64,000 bases of DNA. It comes from an uncultured Clostridia bacterium (GTDB lineage: Bacteria; Bacillota; Clostridia; TANB77; CAG-508). This document shows, in pieces, positions 25,915-39,522 of the stretch. The number at the start of each line of letters is the position of its first letter. Positions within the stretch are counted from its first letter, which is position 1. The notes beneath the pieces were generated by a model, which worked only from the letters and a program-made list of their open reading frames with translations, was not told the DNA's origin and made no database searches. The translations under genes were made by a program, and so were the position numbers. The DNA is taken from contig CALXAV010000005.1 in NCBI GenBank assembly GCA_944386385.1, positions 1,914 through 65,913 of the forward strand, read 5' to 3'.

Positions 25915-26919
25915 ATGGGAGAGTATTTTGATAGAAGAAGAAGTGAATTTAATAGTAGAATAAGAAATGTACCATTAGCAAATCCAAAAAGAGAAAGACC
26001 AGTACAATTATCAGATGGGAGAATAGTATACACAACCATGTCAAAAGAAGACGCAGAACAATTCTTTTGGGAAATGGAAAATATTGTTTTTAAAGGACAC
26101 GAAGAAAGAGTTGCTGAAATGGAAAGAAGAGGCATAAGTTATTTGAAAAGAGGAGATATACCACAAACTACAAGAAGATATACTAACCCTGGGAAGACTA
26201 GAGTAGGAAAAACTTTAAAGACCCTATTTAAAGTTTTTGGAACAGCAGCTGTTATTGGAGCTTTAGCTTTTGCTATAAATAAAGGGCAGGAAGATTTTTA
26301 CAAAACATTACCAGAAAATCAACCAATAACTATGGAACAAGCAATTGGTAATGGTATAACATTAGAAGAAATGTCAATAACTCAAGAAACAGAGGATAAA
26401 ATAGTAGCGATACAAGATAGATTAAATAGTGAAGATATTGGAAATATAGGAGATACCCAATTAATTGAATTAGGTAAAGAAATAGATGACATTCAATTAA
26501 ATAAAATATTTAAAACGAAAGTAGCAGATGCATTAGGCATAAATCCTGAACAAATATCAGTATATTATAAAGCTGCTTCAGGCTCAAACGAATATAATTC
26601 ACAAGAAAGTTTTGCTATGGACATAAAAGATGATGAAGGTAAAGTGACATCTAGTTATGGTCAAGAAAATATGTCAGAGGAAATAAGAAAATATATAAGA
26701 AATATATCAGATATACAAAGCTTAGTTACAAGCATGGAGAATTCAGGAGATATTAGTAGATATTCAACAATAGGAGAATATAAAAGTGCAATGGAAGAAA
26801 CTTCTAAATTTGTAGCAGGAAAAATAAAATTTGATGGAAAAGATTTTACATTAGAACAACAAACACAAAAAGATATAGATGGCTCTTTAGAAATAGCAGA
26901 TGATGGAGAAGAAAGATAA
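25915..26919 (+). CDS. Hypothetical membrane-anchored protein
   Basis: RBS AAGGAGG, one TM (FGTAAVIGALAFAI). No family recognised. Confidence 0.6.
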   Translation: MGEYFDRRRSEFNSRIRNVPLANPKRERPVQLSDGRIVYTTMSKEDAEQFFWEMENIVFKGHEERVAEMERRGISYLKRGDIPQTTRRYTNPGKTRVGKTLKTLFKVFGTAAVIGALAFAINKGQEDFYKTLPENQPITMEQAIGNGITLEEMSITQETEDKIVAIQDRLNSEDIGNIGDTQLIELGKEIDDIQLNKIFKTKVADALGINPEQISVYYKAASGSNEYNSQESFAMDIKDDEGKVTSSYGQENMSEEIRKYIRNISDIQSLVTSMENSGDISRYSTIGEYKSAMEETSKFVAGKIKFDGKDFTLEQQTQKDIDGSLEIADDGEER

Positions 26920-26993: not shown

Positions 26994-29900
26994 TTGAAAG
27001 TAAATAAGATATTAAAAATAGATGGAACACCACTAGATAAAACGCAGTTAGAAAATCATTTACAAAAAATTGCATCTTCACATAATTTAATAGGAAAATC
27101 AGCAAAAAATACTTATCCTGTACCACATTTATTAGAAAGTTTTAAAGTAATACAAGAAGTTTATAATTTATTAAATGAACATCTAAAATTAGGTATAAGT
27201 ATACACCCAGCTGGAGAATGGCTTTTAGATAATTTATATGTTATTGAAGAATGTGTGAAACAAATTGAGAAAGAACTAACTTTAAAGAGATATACAAGTT
27301 TTTTAGGGATTGCAAATGGTAAATATCAAGGTTTTGCAAGGATATATGTTTTAGCATCTGAAATAGTAGCTTATACAGATAATAGAATAGAAAGAAAAGA
27401 CTTAGAAAGCTATCTTGCAAGTTATCAAACTAAAAAGACACTAAGTATGGAAGAAATATGGAATATTGGAATGTTTCTTGAAATTGCAATAATCGAAAAT
27501 ATTAGAGAAGTTTGTGAAAAGATTTATATATCACAGATGGAAAAATATAAAGCAGAAAACATAGTAGAAAGATTAGTAGAAAATAAATCAAAACAGGAGC
27601 AAGTATTTAAAAATAATACTTTTAAAAAAGTAGAAAAAAATGTGTTAAATGATATGCAATATTCATTTGTGGAATATATGTCATATATATTAAAAAGATA
27701 TGGTAAAAAAGGGTATAGTTATTTAAAAGCATTAGAAGAAACAATTGAACTTACAGGAACAACTGTATCAGAAATAATAAAAAAAGAACATTTTGATATT
27801 GCTGTAAGAAAAGTATCAATAGGAAATAGTATTACAAGCATAAAAAAAATACAGAGAATCAATTTCCTAGAAATATTCGAGAAAATAAATGGAGTAGAAG
27901 AGTTATTAAAAAAAGACCCAAGTCATATATATGAAAAAATGGATAGTAAAACAAAAGAATATTATAGAAATAAGATAAAAGAAATATCTAAAAAAACAAA
28001 AATATCAGAGATATATATAACAAGGAAGTTACTAGAAATATCAAGTAAAAATGAAGGAAAAGGAAAGAAAAGCCATATAGGGTATTACTTAATAGATGAA
28101 GGAATAGAAGAATTATATAATATCTTAGGTTATAAAAAGAAAAGTTCTATTAACGTAAAAGAAAAAGTAAAAATCTATATTACTTTGGTATTAGTATTTA
28201 GTTTAGTACTTTCTTTTTATTTAGCAAATATGTTAAATAATAATATAAATAGTTGGGCTATATTAATAATTTCTTGGATGTTATTTTTTATACCAGCTTC
28301 GGAAATTGTAAATCAAGTAATATCATATGTATTAAGTAAAGTTGTTAAACCAAAGTTAATTCCTAAATTAGATTTTTCTAAAGGAATTGATAAAGAAAAT
28401 AGTACAATGGTAGTTATACCAACCATAGTAAACTCAAAAGAAAAAGTAAAAGAGTTAATTGAAAAATTAGAGGTATTTTACTTAGCTAATAAATCAGATA
28501 ATATATATTTTTGCTTACTTGGGGACTGTACTGAAAGTGACAAAAAAGAAGAAAGTTTTGATTTAGATGTGATAGAAGAAGGAAAAAAGGATATAGAAAT
28601 CTCAAATAGAAAATATGAAAGTAATAGCAAAATACCTATATTTAACTTTATATATAGAAAAAGAGAATGGAATGAAAAAGAAGGTTCATATCTAGGCTGG
28701 GAAAGAAAAAGGGGAATGCTATCTCAATTTAATGAATATTTGCTTGGAAATATAAGTAATCCATTTAGAGAAAATACAATTGAAAATTATGAAAACAGAG
28801 AAGAGATAAAAGAAGAATTAAAAAGTATTAAATATATAATAACATTAGATGCAGATACAGATTTAATATTAGACTCAGCTTTTGGACTAGTTGGTGCTAT
28901 GGCTCATATCTTAAATAGACCGGAAATTAATAAGAAAACAAATATTGTGACAGCAGGATATGGGATTATGCAACCAAGAGTAGGAATAAATTTAGAGGTA
29001 AGTAATTATAATCTATTTACAAAAATATTTGCAGGAGCAGGAGGAATAGACTCATATACAAATGCAATTTCAGATTTATATCAAGATAATTTTAAAGAAG
29101 GAATTTTCACAGGAAAAGGAATTTATGATTTAAAAGTATATTCTAAAGTATTAAAAGACCAGATACCTGAAAATACAGTTTTAAGCCATGATTTATTAGA
29201 AGGTTGTTATTTAAGGTGTGGACTGGTTTCGGATATAATGTTAATGGATGGGTATCCAACAAAATATAATAGTTTTATGAATAGATTATCTAGATGGATA
29301 AGAGGAGATGTTCAAATTGTAAAATGGATATCTTCGAAAAGACATCTAAATATATTATCTAGATATAAAATTTTAGATAATATAAGAAGAAGCTTATTAG
29401 AAATAAGTATAGTACTATCAGGAATTTTTACAATGATAATTGGAAAGATTTATAATAAAAGCGTTTATGCTATACTTATAGGATTACTTGTTGTTGCTAT
29501 AATTCCGTTTATATTAGAATTTTTAAATTATATAGTCTTTAAGAAAAATGGTGAGAAGAAGCAGAAAACATTTACACCCAAAATATCAGGAATAAAAGGT
29601 GGCTTGATAAGAGGAATATTAACTTTAGGATGTTTACCATATAAAGCATATATATCGTTAAAATCCATACTTACAAGCATATATAGAATTATTTTTAGTC
29701 ATAAACATTTATTAGAATGGACAACATCAGAGGAAGCGGAAAAACAAGCAAAGGAAGATTTATTTTCATATATAAGACAAATGATTGTGAATATTGTCTT
29801 AGGTTTTATTTGTATATTTAGTGGAAATATATTTGTAATTTGCCTTGGACTTTTATGGATAATGACACCTGTTTTTATGTGGTATATAAGTAGAAAGAAA

Positions 29901-32900
29901 AAAGAGGAGAAGAAGTTAGAAGAGTTAGATGTAGGAGAAAAAGAATATATAAAGGAAATAGGAAGAAGAACGTGGGAGTTCTTTAACACCTATTTAACTC
30001 AGGAAAATAATTATTTAATTACTGATAATTATCAAGAAGATAGGAAAGAAAAAATTGTTCCAAGAACTTCATCAACAAATATTGGGCTATCACTTCTTGC
30101 TGTAATTTCAGCAAATGACATTGGTTATATTGATAAAGAAAAAGCATTAGAATTATTAAGTAATATGTTATTAACAATAGAGAGTCTTCCAAAATGGAAT
30201 GGACATCTATATAATTGGTACCAAATCGAAACAAAAGAACCTTTAATACCAAGATATATATCAACTGTAGATAGTGGTAATTTTGTTGGCTATCTTTTTG
30301 TAGTTAAATCATTTTTGAAAGATATGTTAAATGAAGAAAAAGAGAAAAATCGAGAAACAGAAAAAAATGAGGATTTAAAAAATCTAATATCATTAGTGGA
30401 TAGATTAATAAAAAATACAGATTTCTCAGTATTATATAACAATGAATTACAAATATTTTCAATTGGATTTAATGTAGAAGAAAATAAGTTAACAGATTCA
30501 TATTATGATTTATTAGCATCAGAAGCAAGACAAGCAAGTCTTGTTGCAATTGCAAAAAAAGATGTACCATCAAAACATTGGAATAGTTTAAGTAGAACAA
30601 TGACAACTTTAGGAAAGTACAAAGGACTGGTTTCTTGGTCAGGTACAGCTTTTGAATATTTAATGCCAGATATAAATATACCTAGATACAAGGGAAGTCT
30701 TCTTGATGAATCTTGCAGGTTTATGATAATGAGCCAAAAAGAGTATAGTAAAAAATTAAATATACCTTGGGGAATTTCAGAAGCAGCTTTTAATGTAAAA
30801 GATTTAAAATCAAATTATCAATATAAAGCATTTGGAATACCATGGCTAGGACTTAAAAGAGGTTTAGCAGATGAACTAGTTGTATCTAGTTATGGAAGTA
30901 TTTTGGCAATTAATGATTGCCCGATAGAAGAAATTCAAAACTTAAAAAGATTAGAACAAGAAGGAATGTTCGAAAAGTTTGGATTTTATGAGTCAATAGA
31001 TTATACGCCAGAAAGGGTAGAAAAAGGAAAAACTTTAAGTATTGTAAAAACTTATATGGCACATCATCAAGGATTAATACTTCTTTCAATAAATAATTTA
31101 TTTAATAATAAAATACTTCAAAAGAGATTTATGGAAAATCCAGAAATAAAAGCAGTAAGTATATTATTACAAGAAACAATGCCAGAAACGGGAGTTATAA
31201 CTAAAGAAAAGAAAGAAAAAGTAGAAAAGTTAAAATATAAAGATTATGAAAATTATATAAAATTAGATTATAACAAAATAGATGAGAGGTTAATTACAGG
31301 AAATGTTATTTCAAATGAAGATTATGTTATAGCAATGAATCAAAAAGGAGAAGGTATAAGCAAGTATAAAGATATTTATATAAATAGATTCAAGCCGACA
31401 GATGATTATTCTCAAGGAATATTCTTTGTTATGAAAAATATAAAAACAAAAAGAATGTGGAGCTCTAATTATTTGTTTAATGACAAAAAAGAAAATTACA
31501 AAGTGAGTTTTATGCCAGATAAAAATGAACAAGAAATATTAGAGGGAAATATAAAAACAAAAATAAGAACAACAATTAGTTCAAATGAGCCAGTAGAATT
31601 GAGAAGGATAACATTAGAAAACCAAGGAAATGAAGAAGAAATAATAGAAGTAACAGTATATTTTGAACCTGTTTTATCAAAAAAAGAAGATGATTATGCA
31701 CACCCTGTATTTAATAATTTGTTTTTGAAAACTAAATATGATGAAGAAGTAAATAGTTTAATTATAAAAAGAAAGAAAAGAGAAAAGAATGCAAGAGAAA
31801 TGTATTTAATGACAGGGTTATCCACAAATTGTGAAACAATTGGGGATTTGGAGTATGAAATTAATGAGTCGAAGTTTATTGGAAGAGGAAATTTAGGAAT
31901 TCCGAACATGATACAAAATTCTATACCATTATCTAAGAAAATAGGTTTAGTGACTGAGCCGATTGTTGCTATGAAGAGAACTATTAAAGTAAAGCCACAA
32001 GATAAAGTTGACATTGATTTTATATTAAGTGTTGGAGAAGACGAAAAACAAGTAAAGCAAAATCTAGAAAAATATAAAATATATGAAAATGTGAAAAAAG
32101 AATTTGAGTTATCAAAAGCAAGAGTAGAAGCAGAAAGTAGATATTTAAGAGTAAAGGGAAAAGAAATTGCAATATACCAAAAAATATTGTCTTATATAAT
32201 TTTTGATAATCCAGTTAAATCAGAAAAATTAAAAAGAATAAATCCAGGAGAGTATAAACAAAGTAATCTTTGGAAATATGGAATATCAGGAGATTTACCA
32301 ATAATACTTGTTAAGATAAGAGACGTAAATGACGGGTATATTATAAAAGAGGTTTTAAAAGCATATGAATTTTTTAGAACGAAAAATGTAGATACCGAAA
32401 TTGTTATTTTAGATGAGGAAAGACATAGTTATGAAAATTATGTAAGAGAAGAAATAGAAAATGAGATATTAAATAGACATATGTCATATTTGAAAAATAT
32501 AAAAGGAGGAATTTTTACACTCGTAAAAGGAGAAGTAGATAAAAAGGATATATGTTTATTAGAATTAATTGCATGTGTTACTGTTGATGGAAGAAAAGGT
32601 GGATTAGAAAACAATATAAGAGACTTAGAAGAAGAGTATTTAGATAAATATAAGTTGGTCAATGAAAGTGAACAAAATGTAATAATGCAAGAGGATAATG
32701 ATGAAGATATAGATGTACTAAAAAATAGTGAAAGGCTAAAATACTACAATGAATATGGCGGATTTTCTGAAGACGGAAAAGAATATTTAATAAGAGTGAA
32801 TAAGGAAAATAGACTTCCAAGTGTTTGGTGTAATATCCTAGCAAATGAAAAATTTGGAACAGTTGTAACTGAAAATATGGGAGGATATAGTTGGTTTAAA

Positions 32901-35123
32901 AATAGTAAATTAAATAGAGTAACGGCTTGGGATAATAATCCAAGTTTAGATGTACCAAGTGAAATTATATATATGAAAGAGGAAAATGGAAAAGCATGGT
33001 CTTTAGGATTAAACCCAATGCCAGATAACAGAAACTATAATATTGTATATGGATTTGGATATGTAAAATATATACACAAAAGTTCTGGCATAGAGCAAGA
33101 AATAGAAACATTTGTGCCAAAAGAGGATGCATGTAAAGTGAGTATTTTGTGCTTAAAAAACACAACTCCAAATAAGAAGAAATTTAAATTATATTATTAT
33201 ATAAAACCAGTTCTTGGAGAAGATGAAATAAAAACAAATGGATATTTAAATGTAATTTTAGATGGAAATAATAATCTTGTATATGCTAAGAATTTATATA
33301 AAAGAGAAGAAGAAGATTATTTCATATATGTTTCTTGTAGCGAGAAAATAGAATCTTTTACAGGAGATAAAAACTCATTCTTAGGGGCAGGAGGACTTTC
33401 AAATCCACAAGGATTAAAAAAGGTAAGATTAAATAATGATTCTGGACTAGGTAAAAAGCCTTGTATGGCGTTTGTTGTTGAAGTAGAACTTGAAAGTTAT
33501 GCAAGTAAAGAGATATCTTTTCTCTTGGGAGCTGATGAAAGCTTAATTGATTGTAAAAATGTAGCTTATAAATATAGTAAATTAAATAATTGTAAACAAG
33601 AATTACAAATTACTAAAAATAATTGGAAAGATATTTTGGGAAGGTTACAAGTTTATACTCCTTTAGAGTCTACAAATATATTATTAAATGGTTGGATAAC
33701 ATATCAAACAATTGTAAGTAGACTTTTAGGAAGAAGCGGATATTATCAATCAGGAGGGGCGTTTGGATTTAGAGACCAACTTCAAGACACTTTAGGTTTA
33801 AAATATTTGGATACAAATATCATGAAAAATCAAATATTAAAACACAGTAGACATCAATTTTTAGAAGGAGATGTAGAACATTGGTGGCATGAAGAAACAA
33901 TGCGCGGTATCAGGACAAGATTTTCTGACGACTTACTATGGATTGCCTTTGTAACAATAGAGTATATTAAATTTACAGGAGATAGAAGTATATTAGATAT
34001 AGAAACGCCATATTTAAAGGGGGATGTATTACAAGAAGGACAAGATGAAAGATATGATAAATATATAGAGTCTGAAGAACAAGGAACTATATATAATCAT
34101 TGTATAAGAGCAATAGAGAAATCATTAAATTTTGGAGAAAATGGTCTTCCTAAAATTGGTTCTGGAGACTGGAATGATGGATTTAGTACTGTAGGTAATA
34201 AAGGTAAAGGTGAAAGTATTTGGCTTGGATTTTTCTTATATGATATTTTAGATAATTTTATTACTATATGTAATGAAAAAGGTGATGAAGAACTGGGAGA
34301 AAAATATGAAAAAATAAAACAAGAATTAAAAAAAGCATTAAATACAAAAGGTTGGGATGGAAGATGGTATAAAAGAGCATATATGGATGATGGAAATATA
34401 TTAGGTAGTATGGAAAATGAAGAATGTAGAATTGATAGTATTGCACAAAGTTGGGGTGTTATCTCAAATGCAGGTGATAATGATAAAAAATATATTTCTA
34501 TGGAAAGCTTAGAAAATCATTTAGTTGATAAGGAAAATGGAATTATTAAATTGTTAGACCCACCTTTTGAAAAAAGTAAATTAGAACCAGGTTATATAAA
34601 AGCATATCTACCAGGAGTAAGAGAAAACGGTGGACAATATACACATGCAGCGATATGGGTTATTATTGCAGAAAGCATGCTCGGTTTTGGAGATAAAGCA
34701 TTAGAGTTTTATAGAATGATTAATCCAATAGAACATTCAAGGACTAAAGATGCATGTAATAAATATAAAGTAGAACCATATGTTATAGCAGCAGATATTT
34801 ACGGACAAGGAAATCTTGTAGGACGTGGTGGTTGGACTTGGTATACAGGTTCTAGTAGTTGGTATTATAAAGCAGGGATCGAATATATTTTAGGATTAAG
34901 AATAGAAAATGGTTATATGACAATTGAACCTTGTATTCCAAAAGATTGGAAGGAATATCAAATACAATATAAATGGAAAGATAGTATTTATCATATTAAT
35001 GTTAAGAATCCAAATGGGAAGAATATGGGAGTTACTAAAGTACTTTTAGATAATAATGAAATAGAGAATAAAATAAAATTAGATGGTTCAAGAAAGATTT
35101 ATCATATAGAAGTGATATTATAA
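26994..35123 (+). CDS. Giant (2709 aa) cyclic beta-1,2-glucan synthase-like protein: membrane glycosyltransferase region plus GH94 glycosyl phosphorylase-like C-terminal region
   Basis: TTG start after AAGGAG and multiple TM segments. DADTD-type GT motif (IITLDADTD). C-terminal GH94-like stretches (GGAFGFRDQLQD, GDWNDG, GGQYTHAA) as in NdvB/Cgs and cellobiose/chitobiose phosphorylases. Confidence 0.8.
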   Translation: MKVNKILKIDGTPLDKTQLENHLQKIASSHNLIGKSAKNTYPVPHLLESFKVIQEVYNLLNEHLKLGISIHPAGEWLLDNLYVIEECVKQIEKELTLKRYTSFLGIANGKYQGFARIYVLASEIVAYTDNRIERKDLESYLASYQTKKTLSMEEIWNIGMFLEIAIIENIREVCEKIYISQMEKYKAENIVERLVENKSKQEQVFKNNTFKKVEKNVLNDMQYSFVEYMSYILKRYGKKGYSYLKALEETIELTGTTVSEIIKKEHFDIAVRKVSIGNSITSIKKIQRINFLEIFEKINGVEELLKKDPSHIYEKMDSKTKEYYRNKIKEISKKTKISEIYITRKLLEISSKNEGKGKKSHIGYYLIDEGIEELYNILGYKKKSSINVKEKVKIYITLVLVFSLVLSFYLANMLNNNINSWAILIISWMLFFIPASEIVNQVISYVLSKVVKPKLIPKLDFSKGIDKENSTMVVIPTIVNSKEKVKELIEKLEVFYLANKSDNIYFCLLGDCTESDKKEESFDLDVIEEGKKDIEISNRKYESNSKIPIFNFIYRKREWNEKEGSYLGWERKRGMLSQFNEYLLGNISNPFRENTIENYENREEIKEELKSIKYIITLDADTDLILDSAFGLVGAMAHILNRPEINKKTNIVTAGYGIMQPRVGINLEVSNYNLFTKIFAGAGGIDSYTNAISDLYQDNFKEGIFTGKGIYDLKVYSKVLKDQIPENTVLSHDLLEGCYLRCGLVSDIMLMDGYPTKYNSFMNRLSRWIRGDVQIVKWISSKRHLNILSRYKILDNIRRSLLEISIVLSGIFTMIIGKIYNKSVYAILIGLLVVAIIPFILEFLNYIVFKKNGEKKQKTFTPKISGIKGGLIRGILTLGCLPYKAYISLKSILTSIYRIIFSHKHLLEWTTSEEAEKQAKEDLFSYIRQMIVNIVLGFICIFSGNIFVICLGLLWIMTPVFMWYISRKKKEEKKLEELDVGEKEYIKEIGRRTWEFFNTYLTQENNYLITDNYQEDRKEKIVPRTSSTNIGLSLLAVISANDIGYIDKEKALELLSNMLLTIESLPKWNGHLYNWYQIETKEPLIPRYISTVDSGNFVGYLFVVKSFLKDMLNEEKEKNRETEKNEDLKNLISLVDRLIKNTDFSVLYNNELQIFSIGFNVEENKLTDSYYDLLASEARQASLVAIAKKDVPSKHWNSLSRTMTTLGKYKGLVSWSGTAFEYLMPDINIPRYKGSLLDESCRFMIMSQKEYSKKLNIPWGISEAAFNVKDLKSNYQYKAFGIPWLGLKRGLADELVVSSYGSILAINDCPIEEIQNLKRLEQEGMFEKFGFYESIDYTPERVEKGKTLSIVKTYMAHHQGLILLSINNLFNNKILQKRFMENPEIKAVSILLQETMPETGVITKEKKEKVEKLKYKDYENYIKLDYNKIDERLITGNVISNEDYVIAMNQKGEGISKYKDIYINRFKPTDDYSQGIFFVMKNIKTKRMWSSNYLFNDKKENYKVSFMPDKNEQEILEGNIKTKIRTTISSNEPVELRRITLENQGNEEEIIEVTVYFEPVLSKKEDDYAHPVFNNLFLKTKYDEEVNSLIIKRKKREKNAREMYLMTGLSTNCETIGDLEYEINESKFIGRGNLGIPNMIQNSIPLSKKIGLVTEPIVAMKRTIKVKPQDKVDIDFILSVGEDEKQVKQNLEKYKIYENVKKEFELSKARVEAESRYLRVKGKEIAIYQKILSYIIFDNPVKSEKLKRINPGEYKQSNLWKYGISGDLPIILVKIRDVNDGYIIKEVLKAYEFFRTKNVDTEIVILDEERHSYENYVREEIENEILNRHMSYLKNIKGGIFTLVKGEVDKKDICLLELIACVTVDGRKGGLENNIRDLEEEYLDKYKLVNESEQNVIMQEDNDEDIDVLKNSERLKYYNEYGGFSEDGKEYLIRVNKENRLPSVWCNILANEKFGTVVTENMGGYSWFKNSKLNRVTAWDNNPSLDVPSEIIYMKEENGKAWSLGLNPMPDNRNYNIVYGFGYVKYIHKSSGIEQEIETFVPKEDACKVSILCLKNTTPNKKKFKLYYYIKPVLGEDEIKTNGYLNVILDGNNNLVYAKNLYKREEEDYFIYVSCSEKIESFTGDKNSFLGAGGLSNPQGLKKVRLNNDSGLGKKPCMAFVVEVELESYASKEISFLLGADESLIDCKNVAYKYSKLNNCKQELQITKNNWKDILGRLQVYTPLESTNILLNGWITYQTIVSRLLGRSGYYQSGGAFGFRDQLQDTLGLKYLDTNIMKNQILKHSRHQFLEGDVEHWWHEETMRGIRTRFSDDLLWIAFVTIEYIKFTGDRSILDIETPYLKGDVLQEGQDERYDKYIESEEQGTIYNHCIRAIEKSLNFGENGLPKIGSGDWNDGFSTVGNKGKGESIWLGFFLYDILDNFITICNEKGDEELGEKYEKIKQELKKALNTKGWDGRWYKRAYMDDGNILGSMENEECRIDSIAQSWGVISNAGDNDKKYISMESLENHLVDKENGIIKLLDPPFEKSKLEPGYIKAYLPGVRENGGQYTHAAIWVIIAESMLGFGDKALEFYRMINPIEHSRTKDACNKYKVEPYVIAADIYGQGNLVGRGGWTWYTGSSSWYYKAGIEYILGLRIENGYMTIEPCIPKDWKEYQIQYKWKDSIYHINVKNPNGKNMGVTKVLLDNNEIENKIKLDGSRKIYHIEVIL

Positions 35124-35128
35124 TTTGC

Positions 35129-35157
35129 TTGATAATTCACATAAAAAGGAGTATAAT
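35129..35157 (+). promoter_or_regulatory. Near-consensus sigma-A promoter (TTGATA-17-TATAAT) directly upstream of the GC-rich island
   Basis: TTGATA at 35129-35134, a 17-nt spacer, TATAAT at 35152-35157. The GC-rich sequence begins ~8-10 nt downstream. Confidence 0.6.
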
Positions 35158-35164
35158 AAGAAGT

Positions 35165-35855
35165 ATAGCTACTTTGGTAGCTTGGCAGAAAAAGGTGCTT
35201 TAGAGAAAGGACGATGATGGAAGTACCTAATAGTGTTAGGCGGAGCAAGATTGCTCCCAAGTTCAAGTTCGACAATCCGACCAGGCGGAACCATCTGAGC
35301 AAGAAAGGTGTAAACGGTTGGGGCAACCAAAGGTTTACGAGCGATGATTGTCCGAAGGCCTTTAACGGAATCTTTATTCGTGAAGAAAAAGATTCCGAAG
35401 ATGAGACCGTGACTCATCCCTCGTACCTAATAGTCGCGTCCACAAAACCGTGGGTGCCTTTTGGCCTACGAGGCTGGAATGCTTGTGATGAGCTTGACCT
35501 CATGACGAGGAAGCTCTGGATACAGGAGCATCTCAGCGTCAGATGCGCAAGGGAGGAGGACCTTAAAGGACTGAAGGTGCCCAAAGGAAAGTTCTGGCTT
35601 GCAGAAACTTCCTTTGACATCGACGAGAACGGCGCCCACTTCGGTATGAAGTACGTCGACGATGGAGTAGTCAAGCTAGCCGAACTATGTCGTGTTCATG
35701 GTTCGGAAGCTGTTGAGACCGAAGGAGACGTCGGTGCTGGACTTCTGGCAGTGGTGACCCTTGATACAATCGTCATCAACGACTTAAAAGTACCGTCGTT
35801 GTGGGGCTAAGATCCACTAAGGCACTTTTTTGTGGGAGCTCCGTTGGGGCTCCCT
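35165..35855 (+). ncRNA. Candidate large (~690 nt) highly structured RNA of unassigned class, possibly dual-function
   Basis: ~50% GC body in a ~27% GC genome, coinciding with a promoter-to-3'-hairpin unit. It has at least 14 local hairpins, including 10-bp perfect, 10-bp with U.G, and 13/15-bp stems, plus a possible 15-bp closing helix 35189-35203/35817-35831 with two G.U pairs. See findings. Confidence 0.5.
35214..35810 (+). CDS. Alternative reading of the island: 198-aa ORF of unknown function with foreign (GC3 ~55%) codon usage
   Basis: The frame is open 35181-35810. By manual count, ~27 stop trinucleotides all fall out of frame. First-position G is ~37% and third-position A ~16%. The SD (AAAGGA) is only 2-5 nt from the ATG pair. 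No family recognised. Confidence 0.4.
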   Translation: MMEVPNSVRRSKIAPKFKFDNPTRRNHLSKKGVNGWGNQRFTSDDCPKAFNGIFIREEKDSEDETVTHPSYLIVASTKPWVPFGLRGWNACDELDLMTRKLWIQEHLSVRCAREEDLKGLKVPKGKFWLAETSFDIDENGAHFGMKYVDDGVVKLAELCRVHGSEAVETEGDVGAGLLAVVTLDTIVINDLKVPSLWG

Positions 35856-35883
35856 ACTTAATTTAAAAAAGGAAAGGTTAATT

Positions 35884-36879
35884 ATGAAAAGTAGAGATAT
35901 AAACCAACTATTAGATGGGCTGAGAAAAAATATGTTGGAATTTTCAGGTACAGAAGAAGATAAAGAAATAAAAATGGCATTATATGTAGCTATAGAGCTT
36001 GCTAAAAGTAAATCGTTTGATGAAAGATATTATCTTGGGAGTGACCAATTAGCAAAAAGAATAGTAAAACAAGCAAGAGAAGATAGTAAAAGTGAAAATT
36101 TCGAAAGAACATTAAACAAAAGAAAGCTTATATGCATTTCTATAGCAAATACATATAAAAGAATATTAAATAACCTATGTATAGATTGTGAAGTATTTAG
36201 AGTGATGAATTCGGACCATTTATATAATATTGTAACATTAAGTAATGGAAGAAAAATATGTGTTGACGTGCAAGAGGATTTATACCGTATTCATACTGGA
36301 AGAACATTAAATCATTTTTATGCATTGGGAGAAATAGACTTTTTACCAGATGACAGACTAATACCCATGCTGGTAGAATTAGGTTATACTAAAGATAAAG
36401 ATAGTTATAATGATAGAGATAATAAAATAGAAGCTGTTAGACAGAAAGTAGCAGACCTTACGCCTGATGAGGCTTTAGATGTTATATTTAGTTCTGATGA
36501 GCTTTTCCAAGGACTAGAAGAACTGGAAACTTCAGAAGCATACAGTTATTATTATGCTTTAAGGAGAGATACATTAGATAGAAAGAGATTCAAAAGAACA
36601 TATCAATTCCCATGTGCTAGATTAGACGATAATGGTGAACCTAAAGATTTCACCTTTTGTATATATGCAGATACATATGATTATAGAACAGTAAAACCAT
36701 ACTTATACTCTGAAAAAGAAGGTAGAATAATGCTATGTGATTTAATAACACTGGATAAATTACAAGATGATGGATTAAAATTAGGAAGATTAGGAGTAGA
36801 AACTAGGATTAGAAAGCTAAGAAGATACATGAAGCAAGCAGTAAAGGCAGGTAAGAGAAGAGAGGAAGAAACAAGATAA
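35884..36879 (+). CDS. Hypothetical protein, possible transglutaminase-like (Cys-His-Asp) fold
   Basis: RBS GGAAAGG before the ATG at 35884 (the track start at 35830 lies inside the island hairpin). Ordered C (LICISIANTY), H (SDHLYNIV) and D (ICVDVQED) resemble the TGase-like core. Weak call. Confidence 0.6.
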   Translation: MKSRDINQLLDGLRKNMLEFSGTEEDKEIKMALYVAIELAKSKSFDERYYLGSDQLAKRIVKQAREDSKSENFERTLNKRKLICISIANTYKRILNNLCIDCEVFRVMNSDHLYNIVTLSNGRKICVDVQEDLYRIHTGRTLNHFYALGEIDFLPDDRLIPMLVELGYTKDKDSYNDRDNKIEAVRQKVADLTPDEALDVIFSSDELFQGLEELETSEAYSYYYALRRDTLDRKRFKRTYQFPCARLDDNGEPKDFTFCIYADTYDYRTVKPYLYSEKEGRIMLCDLITLDKLQDDGLKLGRLGVETRIRKLRRYMKQAVKAGKRREEETR

Positions 36880-38217: not shown

Positions 38218-39522
38218 ATGAAGGCTAATGAACCTTTAGCTTTTCGTATGAGACCAAAAACTTTAGATGATTATGTTGGTCAAGAACATGTGTTAGCAAA
38301 AGATAAAGTATTATATAGAACAATTAAAGCAGATAGATTATCAAGTATTATATTATTTGGACCTCCTGGATGTGGAAAAACATCACTTGCAAGAGTAATT
38401 AGTGAAACAACTAAGTATAAATTTTATAAGATAAATGCAGTAACGGCAGGAGTTGCAGATATTAAAAGAGTAATTGAAGAAACTAAAAACTTTATGCTAA
38501 ATCCAACAGGAAAAAGTATATTATTTATTGATGAGATTCATAGATTTAATAAATTACAACAAGATGCACTTCTTCCATATGTAGAAAATGGAACAATTAT
38601 TTTAATCGGAGCAACAACTGAAAATCCTTATTTTGAGGTAAACAAAGCTTTGATTTCAAGGTCAATGGTAATTAAATTGAACCCATTAACAGAGGAAAAT
38701 ATATTTCAAATATTAAAAAATGCTATTACAAAAAAAGAGGGACTTGGAGAATATAATATAAAAATAGATGATAGTACATTAAGAAAATTAGCAGTTATTA
38801 GTAATGGCGATGTAAGAACAGCTTTAAACGGTTTAGAGGTTGCAACACTAACTACTGCAATGTCAGAAGATGGGTATATTCATTTGACAGATGATATAAT
38901 TAAAAACAGTGTTCAAGAAAGAAAAGCCGTATTTGATAAAAATGGTGAAGAACATTATGATAATATAAGTGCATTTATAAAATCAATGAGAGGCTCTGAC
39001 CCAGATGCAGCAGTATTTTATTTAGCAAGAGCATTAAATGGTGGAGAAGATCCAATGTTTTTAGCAAGAAGAATTACAATATGTGCATCTGAAGATGTTG
39101 GTATGGCAAATCCAAATGCTTTAGTTGTAGCAAACAGTGCTATGCAAGCTGTTCATATGATAGGAATGCCAGAAGCAAGAATATTGCTTGCAGAAGCGGC
39201 AGTATATGTAGCAACATCTCCAAAATCTAATGCATCTTATATGGCAATTAATAAAGCGTTAGAAGATGTAAAAAATAAAGATACAGGAGAAGTTCCTATG
39301 CATATTAGGAATGCACCAATAGAGCAGATGAAGAACTTAGGATATCACGAAGGATATTTATACCCACATGACTTTCCAGGGCACTATGTAGAGCAACAGT
39401 ATCTTCCAGATAAAATGGTTGGAACTAAATATTATGATGATAGTGATATACCAGAGAAAGTAGAAAAACAAATAAAAGGTCCAAGAAAAGTAAAAAAAGA
39501 AGAAAAACAAAATAAAAATTAA
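38218..39522 (+). CDS. rarA: Replication-associated recombination protein A (RarA/MgsA AAA+ ATPase)
   Basis: MRPKTLDDYVGQEH...ILFGPPGCGKTSLA...FIDEIHRFNKLQQDALLP...ATTENPYFEV... and a MgsA C-terminal domain. Confidence 0.9.
   Translation: MKANEPLAFRMRPKTLDDYVGQEHVLAKDKVLYRTIKADRLSSIILFGPPGCGKTSLARVISETTKYKFYKINAVTAGVADIKRVIEETKNFMLNPTGKSILFIDEIHRFNKLQQDALLPYVENGTIILIGATTENPYFEVNKALISRSMVIKLNPLTEENIFQILKNAITKKEGLGEYNIKIDDSTLRKLAVISNGDVRTALNGLEVATLTTAMSEDGYIHLTDDIIKNSVQERKAVFDKNGEEHYDNISAFIKSMRGSDPDAAVFYLARALNGGEDPMFLARRITICASEDVGMANPNALVVANSAMQAVHMIGMPEARILLAEAAVYVATSPKSNASYMAINKALEDVKNKDTGEVPMHIRNAPIEQMKNLGYHEGYLYPHDFPGHYVEQQYLPDKMVGTKYYDDSDIPEKVEKQIKGPRKVKKEEKQNKN

Follow-up and report, generated by a model that had tools for sequence, protein, structure and literature searches.

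The 64,000-nucleotide (nt) stretch of DNA considered here (hereafter, the window) is part of contig CALXAV010000005.1 of an uncultured Clostridia bacterium, has a mean GC content of 27.6% and contains one island of about 50% GC, at positions 35165 to 35856. Counted over 100 nt at a time, the GC fraction is 0.20 to 0.29 before 35150, 0.43 to 0.55 at 35200 to 35850 and 0.29 after 35850, and the island is the sole one of its kind in the 64 kb; elsewhere, every 200-nt stretch has at most 42% GC. Upstream, an open reading frame (ORF) of 2709 amino acids (aa) ends with TAA at 35121 to 35123, and a near-consensus sigma-A-type promoter, which occurs only once in the window even when up to 3 mismatches are allowed, follows directly. 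Downstream, the gene for a 331-aa protein begins with an ATG at 35884 behind AAAGGAAAGG. Between the two, a transcript from the promoter, which would start at about 35164 to judge from the position of the −10 box, runs through a coding sequence for a 197-aa protein to a predicted intrinsic terminator, whose hairpin GGGAGCTCC/GGGGCTCCC (35834 to 35854; 9 pairs, including one U.G) is followed by TACTTAATTT (Table 1). An initial annotation of the locus had drawn the same outline, that is, a sharp island of about 50% GC, a promoter after the stop of the 2709-aa gene, a 9-bp end hairpin with one U.G pair and a downstream gene with its own ribosome-binding site, and had taken the island for one promoter-to-terminator unit. 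The GC counts, the promoter and terminator scans and the matching GC borders bear this outline out. What the data contradict is the conclusion that was drawn from it, a noncoding RNA gene of about 690 nt.

Table 1. Features of the GC-rich island and of the gene downstream of it. GC3, GC content at third codon positions; dN/dS, ratio of nonsynonymous to synonymous substitution rates; AF2, AlphaFold2 model; UTR, untranslated region.
Feature	Position (nt)	Strand	Basis or remark
Sigma-A-type promoter, TTGATA-17 nt-TATAAT	35129-35157	+	Promoter scan, 11/12
Promoter boxes	TTGATA 35129-35134; TATAAT 35152-35157	+	
5' hairpin, AGCUAC-UUUG-GUAGCU	35167-35182	+	About 3 nt from the inferred start (about 35164)
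Closing helix, 5' strand, AAAAAGGUGCUUUAG	35189-35203	+	Ends 1 nt before the Shine-Dalgarno sequence
Shine-Dalgarno region, AGAAAGGA	35204-35211	+	
Coding sequence, 197 aa, uncharacterised family	35217-35810	+	Homologues, dN/dS, AF2
Coding hairpin, GUAAACGGUUGG...CCAAAGGUUUAC, over the conserved VNGW.NQ.FT motif	35310-35338	+	Inverted repeat I12
Perfect 10-bp coding hairpin, CGGAAUCUUU / AAAGAUUCCG	35366-35397	+	Inverted repeat I13, 100% complementary
Coding hairpin with 15-nt arms, CAAAGGAAAGUUCUG / CAGAAACUUCCUUUG	35582-35616	+	Inverted repeat I3, 87% complementary
Closing helix, 3' strand, CUAAGGCACUUUUUU	35817-35831	+	In the 3' UTR, 7 nt after the stop codon
Intrinsic terminator, GGGAGCUCC-GUU-GGGGCUCCC plus U-rich tail	35834-35863	+	Terminator scan
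331-aa gene, unassigned family	35884-36879	+	30% GC, GC3 0.17, host-like composition

The island carries a gene for a protein. A frame of 198 aa had already been seen in the initial annotation and is confirmed (ORF 35214 to 35810); its first ATG is not present in relatives, which have ACG there, and the start was therefore taken as 35217. The coding sequence has 50.3% GC and a GC3 of 55.6%, compared to a GC3 of about 15% in host genes. When the island was shuffled by mononucleotides 5000 times, a frame of this length arose in 9 shuffles and was not reached in the other 4991. The GC fractions of the three codon positions (0.56/0.39/0.56) and a G content of 38% at the first position also have the signature of a coding sequence. 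Comparison with the closest relative (contig L001) revealed 78 substitutions, distributed 19/6/53 over the three codon positions, and zero insertions or deletions across the frame; the dN/dS of this frame is 0.09, and the other two frames give 1.2 and 4.4. Across the family pairs compared, the dN/dS of the gene is 0.09 to 0.32. The 14 homologues, 33 to 90% identical at the aa level, come from AT-rich uncultured Clostridia, and in all 15 lineages with DNA recovered (window included) the frame is intact, with 197 to 214 aa, down to 33% identity; the lengths for L020 and L022 were counted from the family-consensus start and not from the longer called ORF. A Shine-Dalgarno sequence, AGAGAAAGG(A/G), is conserved 6 to 8 nt upstream of the ATG in most aligned leaders. 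Furthermore, the AF2 model of the 197-aa protein, computed from an alignment of only 11 sequences, has a mean predicted local distance difference test (pLDDT) score of 88.7 and a predicted template modelling (TM) score of 0.82, with 125 of 197 residues at or above 90, and is mostly beta. Thus, we have shown computationally that the island is a protein-coding gene under purifying selection, with a foldable, mostly beta product that is without known relatives. The coding sequence also contains an exact 12-nt direct repeat, GTACCTAATAGT, at 35223 to 35234 and 35423 to 35434, 200 nt apart.

The island protein had no credible match in Pfam, NCBIfam, PADLOC, PHROGs or the PDB sequence profiles, where single-member noise stood at E values of 0.04 or worse, and a Foldseek search with the AF2 model gave best E values of 0.46 (PDB) and 0.056 (BFVD), with TM scores below 0.25. 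Several candidate relationships were considered and discarded. A weak phmmer match (E = 6.7e-4) to a 2644-aa MBG_2 repeat protein had suggested a YGX-type MBG domain, for which hhalign returned a probability of 0.1%; zero family members match MBG_2 in Pfam at E <= 10. The idea of a C-type-lectin/DUF6273-like C-terminal half was supported neither by Pfam searches with the island family nor by Foldseek. A relationship to Oblin-1, the protein of Obelisks, came to mind because of a size of about 200 aa, strong RNA folding and a YVDxG motif, which would be Oblin-1 traits. Oblin-1 is helical; the model of the island protein is mostly beta, the element is DNA-encoded and mostly syntenic in the chromosome, its RNA fold is not rod-like, and no such distant homologues appeared in the full HMMER search. 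Oblin-1 was set aside on these features, not by comparison with Oblin sequences.

The reading as a noncoding structured RNA of about 690 nt, of a new class and with a fortuitous 198-codon frame, draws on the match between the GC island and the transcript borders, on very negative folding z-scores, on covarying UTR helices (both described below) and on a frame without a known protein family. It has to contend, however, with a substitution pattern and a low dN/dS that are specific to one frame, the lack of any insertion or deletion, a frame that stays intact in every lineage behind a conserved Shine-Dalgarno sequence and AUG, the confident AF2 fold and the lack of a conserved consensus structure in the coding region. 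Since the frame is under purifying selection, has intact homologues and encodes a product with a confident fold, a purely noncoding RNA is excluded, and we regard the fortuitous frame as extremely improbable. The initial annotation had recognised no known RNA class, and the Rfam check agrees with it: Rfam 15 gave no match at gathering score in the whole window (zero families, such as tRNA, riboswitch or T-box, across 1 to 64000), only microRNA and snoRNA noise at E <= 10 between 35000 and 36000, and no match in the island of the 14 relatives. Retron, diversity-generating retroelement and group II intron readings were likewise dropped, as neither a nearby reverse transcriptase nor an Rfam match was found.

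The noncoding ends of the unit, that is, the promoter and its spacer, the leader, the Shine-Dalgarno sequence, the short 3' UTR and the terminator, are conserved in sequence family-wide, and the coding sequence diverges fast. The same promoter sequence, including the spacer ATTCACATAAAA, is found upstream of the homologues, and the terminator (GGGAGCTCC...GGAGCTCCC) is kept in relatives, with covarying variants. A search for further copies of the leader found it to be unique in the window; a scan of metagenome and viral contigs with a 16-mer from the leader, a query too short for the purpose, gave only chance matches among the matches listed. Two helices stand out in these ends. The 5' hairpin folds in 15 of 15 leaders (ΔG of −4.7 to −9.3 kcal/mol), at 0 to 3 nt from the inferred start, and its stem varies in the manner of covariation (AGCUAC/GUAGCU, AGCC/GGCU, AGUC/GACU and GGUCAUC/GAUGGCC). 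The second helix pairs the 5' UTR with the 3' UTR and closes the transcript; in the window it comprises 15 bp and is present in both the minimum free energy (MFE) and the centroid fold. In the UTR alignment of the 15 sequences (A5), 83.7% of the cells pair, versus 34 to 58% in slid controls, and the covariation score was reached by 1 of 500 shuffles. The central pair is A-U in 8 members, G-C in 2 and G-U in 1. The closing helix also includes two G.U pairs, which would be A.C mismatches on the other strand, and this points to the sense RNA as the molecule that folds. It is found in 11 of the 15 members, and the duplex runs into the Shine-Dalgarno sequence in L012, L014, L019 and L023. The computational evidence therefore shows that the 5' hairpin and the 5'UTR-3'UTR helix are conserved with compensatory changes. 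According to the initial annotation, homologues that vary only at synonymous sites of the frame, with no compensatory changes in stems, would have spoken against an RNA gene; this applies in part, the substitutions relative to the nearest homologue being patterned by codon position.

The 3' strand of the closing helix (35816 to 35829) can instead form a duplex with AAAAGUACCGUCGU in the terminal part of the coding sequence (35786 to 35799; 14-nt arms, 79% complementary), a segment that resembles the family-consensus 5' strand, GGUACUUUA. From the sequence, this pairing is a possible translation-sensitive alternative structure.

The message as a whole is folded beyond expectation. The 701-nt transcript has an MFE of −259 kcal/mol, corresponding to a z-score of −6.4 relative to dinucleotide shuffles, and its antisense folds at z −8.1. 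In a stricter control, synonymous codons were permuted such that both the protein and its codon usage were kept. Relative to these shuffles, the coding sequence of the window has z −3.8 (−3.2 in a repeat run), and the values for 11 members are −3.8, −3.4, −4.5, −5.6, −4.7, −2.7, −4.3, −4.7, −4.6, −1.6 and −4.8; by comparison, seven other genes of the window with about the same length, used as controls, lie between −1.9 and +1.1, with a mean of about −0.15. A second run, with all 15 members, gave a mean z of −3.8 for the sense and −3.3 for the antisense strand, the sense strand being the stronger one in 12 of 15. By this computational measure, base-pairing in the message has been shown to exceed the needs of protein and codon usage in nearly every member of the family.

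Which helices make up this excess differs from member to member. The hairpin over the VNGW.NQ.FT motif is retained by alifold in the 15-sequence alignment, and L018 carries a two-sided synonymous change in it (GUGAAC/GUUCAC); the perfect 10-bp hairpin keeps its stem in L001 with an altered loop; the hairpin with 15-nt arms is weaker in L001 and exemplifies that coding helices are not strictly conserved. Between the window and L001, substitutions break 29 predicted coding-region pairs and keep 25. The conserved feature is the amount of folding, not a specific architecture. Of the structured RNA claimed by the initial annotation, the excess folding and the covarying UTR helices stand, and conserved helices in the coding region do not.

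These observations bear on the possibility of a dual-function transcript, which is translated and whose folded body also acts as a scaffold, decoy, sensor or RNase-resistant message. Excess structure in most of the 15 members, a 5'-3' closure that is typical of stable RNAs, the structure shared by four GC-rich members (alifold z −3.5) and a sequence conservation of terminator and leader far beyond generic needs would all fit such a role. Nevertheless, no specific coding-region architecture is conserved family-wide, there is neither an Rfam-like motif nor a sign of an RNA partner, and generic foldedness fits the pattern equally well. A second function of the RNA is thus rather unlikely in our view.

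The distribution of the family and the surroundings of the gene are relevant to the origin of the island. The first protein search returned one cluster, P0001, 90% identical to the island protein, whose contigs (L001 to L009) have the same downstream order as the window: island gene, 331-aa gene, HD-domain gene, ruvA and RarA-like gene. When species-representative genomes were scanned with the neighbouring 331-aa protein, two metagenome-assembled genomes (MAGs) of uncultured Clostridia were found, both with an island homologue of 45 to 48% identity at the same site, and a profile search together with a full HMMER search gave further members, down to 34% identity. The homologue search covered about 15 billion proteins; in IMG/VR, the island family was not found. 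The neighbours are the same in the twelve members with enough flank, the context of L016 is different, and the flanks of L018 and L020 are too short to judge synteny; of the contigs with homologues, four do not extend far enough for the site of the gene to be judged.

Searches of Pfam, NCBIfam, PADLOC and PHROGs placed the 331-aa protein in no family, and it has no structure match in the PDB. Its AF2 model has a pLDDT of 76, with residues 45 to 81 disordered, and C84, H112 and D128 are invariant. The guess of a papain/transglutaminase-like triad was abandoned, Foldseek giving only nonsignificant matches of the USP type, as was the idea that the 334-aa ORF at 25915 to 26919 is a paralogue, since no paralogy was found. 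In L010 to L014, L017 and L023, the 331-aa gene is present as two tandem paralogues. Together with the island gene, it spans 35217 to 36879 in the window, 6001 to 8717 in L012, 3695 to 6411 in L014, 4230 to 6939 in L010 and 4291 to 6993 in L011. In syntenic relatives, the flanking proteins are 88 to 97% identical to those of the window, versus 33 to 48% for the island protein and 37 to 71% for the 331-aa protein. Between L012 and L014, synonymous divergence (dS) is 0.06 to 0.15 and nonsynonymous divergence (dN) 0.002 to 0.009 in the flanks, and the three cassette genes have a dS of 0.28 to 0.38 and a dN of 0.06 to 0.075, the latter being 8 to 30 times that of the flanks. The island gene and the 331-aa gene thus look like a fast-diverging cassette, shaped by allele exchange or diversifying evolution.

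Composition varies strongly within the family. The flanking DNA has about 26 to 29% GC in every member with usable flank (L018, L020 and L021 have too little to judge host GC), and the members differ in the GC3 of the gene, from 19 to 59%. This GC3 is high in the lineage of the window (56%), L001 (47%), L016 (59%), L017 (43%) and L018 (51%), lies 10 to 40 points above that of the host in most members and is near host level in L021, L022 and L024. With its GC3 so far from that of host genes, the gene has the atypical composition by which transferred genes are recognised, and the gene or its GC-rich alleles might have come, unameliorated, from a donor of about 50% GC. The three- to fourfold-higher synonymous divergence of the island and 331-aa genes over the flanks in L012/L014, which suggests allele exchange, and an insertion sequence (IS)-type transposase upstream in L002 would be in line with such a transfer. 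However, all twelve relatives with enough flank have the gene at this site (L016 does not), its borders in the window have neither an integrase nor a tRNA, and among the about 15 billion proteins searched, zero members come from outside AT-rich hosts (judged for hosts with usable flank). Between the window and L001, dS in the island gene (0.60) equals that in the flanking glucan-synthase-like giant gene (0.61). Furthermore, composition breaks at the borders between coding sequence and UTRs, the promoter, leader and terminator being AT-rich and conserved family-wide; the covarying 331-aa neighbour has native composition; and a foreign origin does not explain folding in excess of codon shuffles. 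The GC island is probably not foreign DNA, and a transfer is very unlikely to be its cause.

How, then, did the island arise? The explanation that we favour, and that we consider probable, is a monocistronic protein-coding gene whose mRNA is selected for compactness and stability. According to this model, transcription from the sigma-A promoter would start at about 35164, the AUG at 35217 would be translated behind its Shine-Dalgarno sequence, and transcription would stop at the hairpin at 35834 to 35854. Selection would act on the transcript for compactness and stability, and because stable helices in a genome of 27% GC need G-C pairs, synonymous sites and some amino-acid sites would have drifted GC-rich. 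This drift would have been strong in the lineage of the window and in two or three others, giving rise to a GC island with the borders of a transcript. The 5' hairpin would block decay that depends on the 5' end, and the closing helix would hide both ends of the transcript; abutting the Shine-Dalgarno sequence, it could, as in icaR, also tune translation or offer a site to RNase III. Endonucleases would find few AU-rich single-stranded targets in the folded body, and the strong terminator would be part of the same stable-message design.

Several observations weigh against this explanation. The start site and the stabilising role of the helices are argued from analogy, and the model does not account for the split between lineages, some at 50% GC and others near 33%. 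L010, L016, L017 and L018 lack the canonical closing helix or use other pairing, and the folding z-scores of L019 and L022 are weak. An alifold run over the 15 coding sequences yielded no consensus structure; the MFE structures of the window and L001 are 333 base pairs apart, and stems are not depleted of substitutions. Moreover, G.U pairs are not enriched, and the folding excess of the antisense is also strong, in the window even stronger than that of the sense strand (z −5.4 versus −3.2), which may leave room for a DNA-level or antisense cause. At a hypervariable locus prone to recombination, a cause of this kind could be template switching at quasi-palindromes or biased gene conversion, and besides the two points just given (the antisense folds almost as far beyond expectation as the sense strand across the family), the many short inverted repeats and the faster divergence of the locus relative to its flanks are what it would predict. 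However, the sense strand is the stronger one in most members, the G.U pairs of the closing helix are A.C on the other strand, and the borders of the island coincide with those of the transcript. Finally, the 331-aa gene, outside the island, is equally hypervariable and is not GC-rich, so hypervariability or biased gene conversion alone does not explain the GC island. A DNA-level cause therefore seems highly improbable to us, and selection on the message for compactness and stability remains the preferred explanation.

Some further observations concern the neighbourhood of the island. The 2709-aa protein (26994 to 35123) has a putative glucoamylase domain as well as GH94 supersandwich and catalytic domains and is highly conserved in relatives; from these domains, we infer a cyclic beta-1,2-glucan synthase-like protein. 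This GH94/glucoamylase giant gene is located upstream of the island in L001 and L006, and several other contigs differ upstream or break at the promoter. In L002 to L005 and L007 to L009, the upstream sequence differs as far as a junction some 25 nt ahead of the promoter, directly before GGTAATACTATAATTTGCTTGATAA. A DDE transposase gene (875 to 1885) takes the place of the end of the giant GH94 gene in L002, and many contigs break here. In the P0016/P0017 lineage (L012, 1 to 5687; L014, 1 to 3379), the giant gene comes in two pieces, one of 2582 aa and a separate GH94 fragment of 135 aa, and a spacer of about 310 nt lies upstream of the island gene. One MAG (L010, 3524 to 4081) has an extra 185-aa ORF of 33 to 40% GC between the giant gene and the island gene; PADLOC and PHROGs scans, the only ones run with it, gave nothing significant, and its motifs 'WVASPS...GFRPLVCL' may resemble those of C-type-lectin-like DUF6273 domains. 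Downstream, the gene after ruvA (38218 to 39522) encodes RuvB_N/AAA and MgsA_C domains and is of the RarA/MgsA type rather than a canonical ruvB. In L001 to L005, two overlapping ORFs (291 and 148 aa) are called in its place, which suggests a frameshift or an assembly error in these contigs.

Parts of the arrangement are known from other messages. The leaders of ermC, aprE and ompA carry 5'-terminal stabiliser hairpins in Gram-positive and enteric mRNAs, and all 15 leaders of the island family have a stable hairpin close to the predicted 5' end, a few nt away as counted from the start position that the −10 box implies, with a strong Shine-Dalgarno sequence behind it. Dual-function RNAs such as RNAIII/hld, SgrS/SgrT and SR1/SR1P also combine a reading frame and selected secondary structure in one transcript. 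Their peptides of 26 to 43 aa are embedded in a mainly regulatory RNA, in contrast to the 197-aa frame, which fills about 85% of the island transcript. In the icaR mRNA of Staphylococcus aureus, a segment of the 3' UTR pairs with the 5' UTR at the Shine-Dalgarno sequence (PMC3868564). Similarly, the 3'-UTR strand of the island transcript is predicted to pair with the 5' UTR adjoining its own Shine-Dalgarno sequence, and this complementarity is conserved among relatives; the predicted duplex of 12 to 18 bp in the island family would be long enough for an RNase III substrate. Unlike in icaR, the helix of the window ends 1 nt short of the Shine-Dalgarno sequence and does not cover it, the 3' UTR has a length of only about 45 nt, the two strands enclose a coding sequence that is overstructured and GC-enriched, and the proteins are unrelated. 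OLE, ROOL, GOLLD, raiA and HEARO are large GC-rich RNAs of AT-rich Firmicutes that were found by way of GC-rich intergenic regions (PMC6429828). The island has in common with them a GC content far above the genome mean, a single transcript of 600 to 700 nt and folding strongly beyond expectation, but it contains a conserved frame and has neither an Rfam match nor a conserved internal architecture. We cannot assign to a described class the combination of a family-wide folding excess of the coding sequence with a GC3 that is raised by as much as 40 points.

For AT-rich genomes, it follows that a GC island with the borders of a transcript is insufficient to call a noncoding RNA and that a frame-aware comparison with one relative settles the matter. 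Published work on GC-rich intergenic regions already cautions that many of them are unannotated protein-coding genes, as is reported for about one third of the unknown ones in the HIMB5 genome (PMC6429828). The family of the island protein is an orphan: its predicted fold is confident, PDB and BFVD yielded no relative, and its genomic surroundings are hypervariable. It is conceivable, if unlikely, that the island protein and one or two copies of the 331-aa protein form a fast-evolving module of intracellular conflict that is expressed from an 'armoured message'. If so, the closed, GC-enriched mRNA, rich in double strands, would be selected to survive and to stay translatable while cellular RNA is under attack, for instance by ribonucleases that are phage-induced or act as toxins and that cleave AU-rich single strands; alternatively, the folded RNA may itself serve as a decoy or sensor. 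In that case, mRNA architecture would be coupled to a defence-like function in a new way, and the protein would represent a new fold family. Irrespective of such a function, most members fold 3 to 5 standard deviations more stably than their own synonymous shuffles (weakly so in L019 and L022), and this excess, the raised GC3 and the 5'-3' closure together make the family a natural example, of unusual clarity, of bacterial synonymous sites under selection for mRNA structure, which may be used to test what share mRNA folding and end-pairing have in message lifetime and translation in Clostridia.

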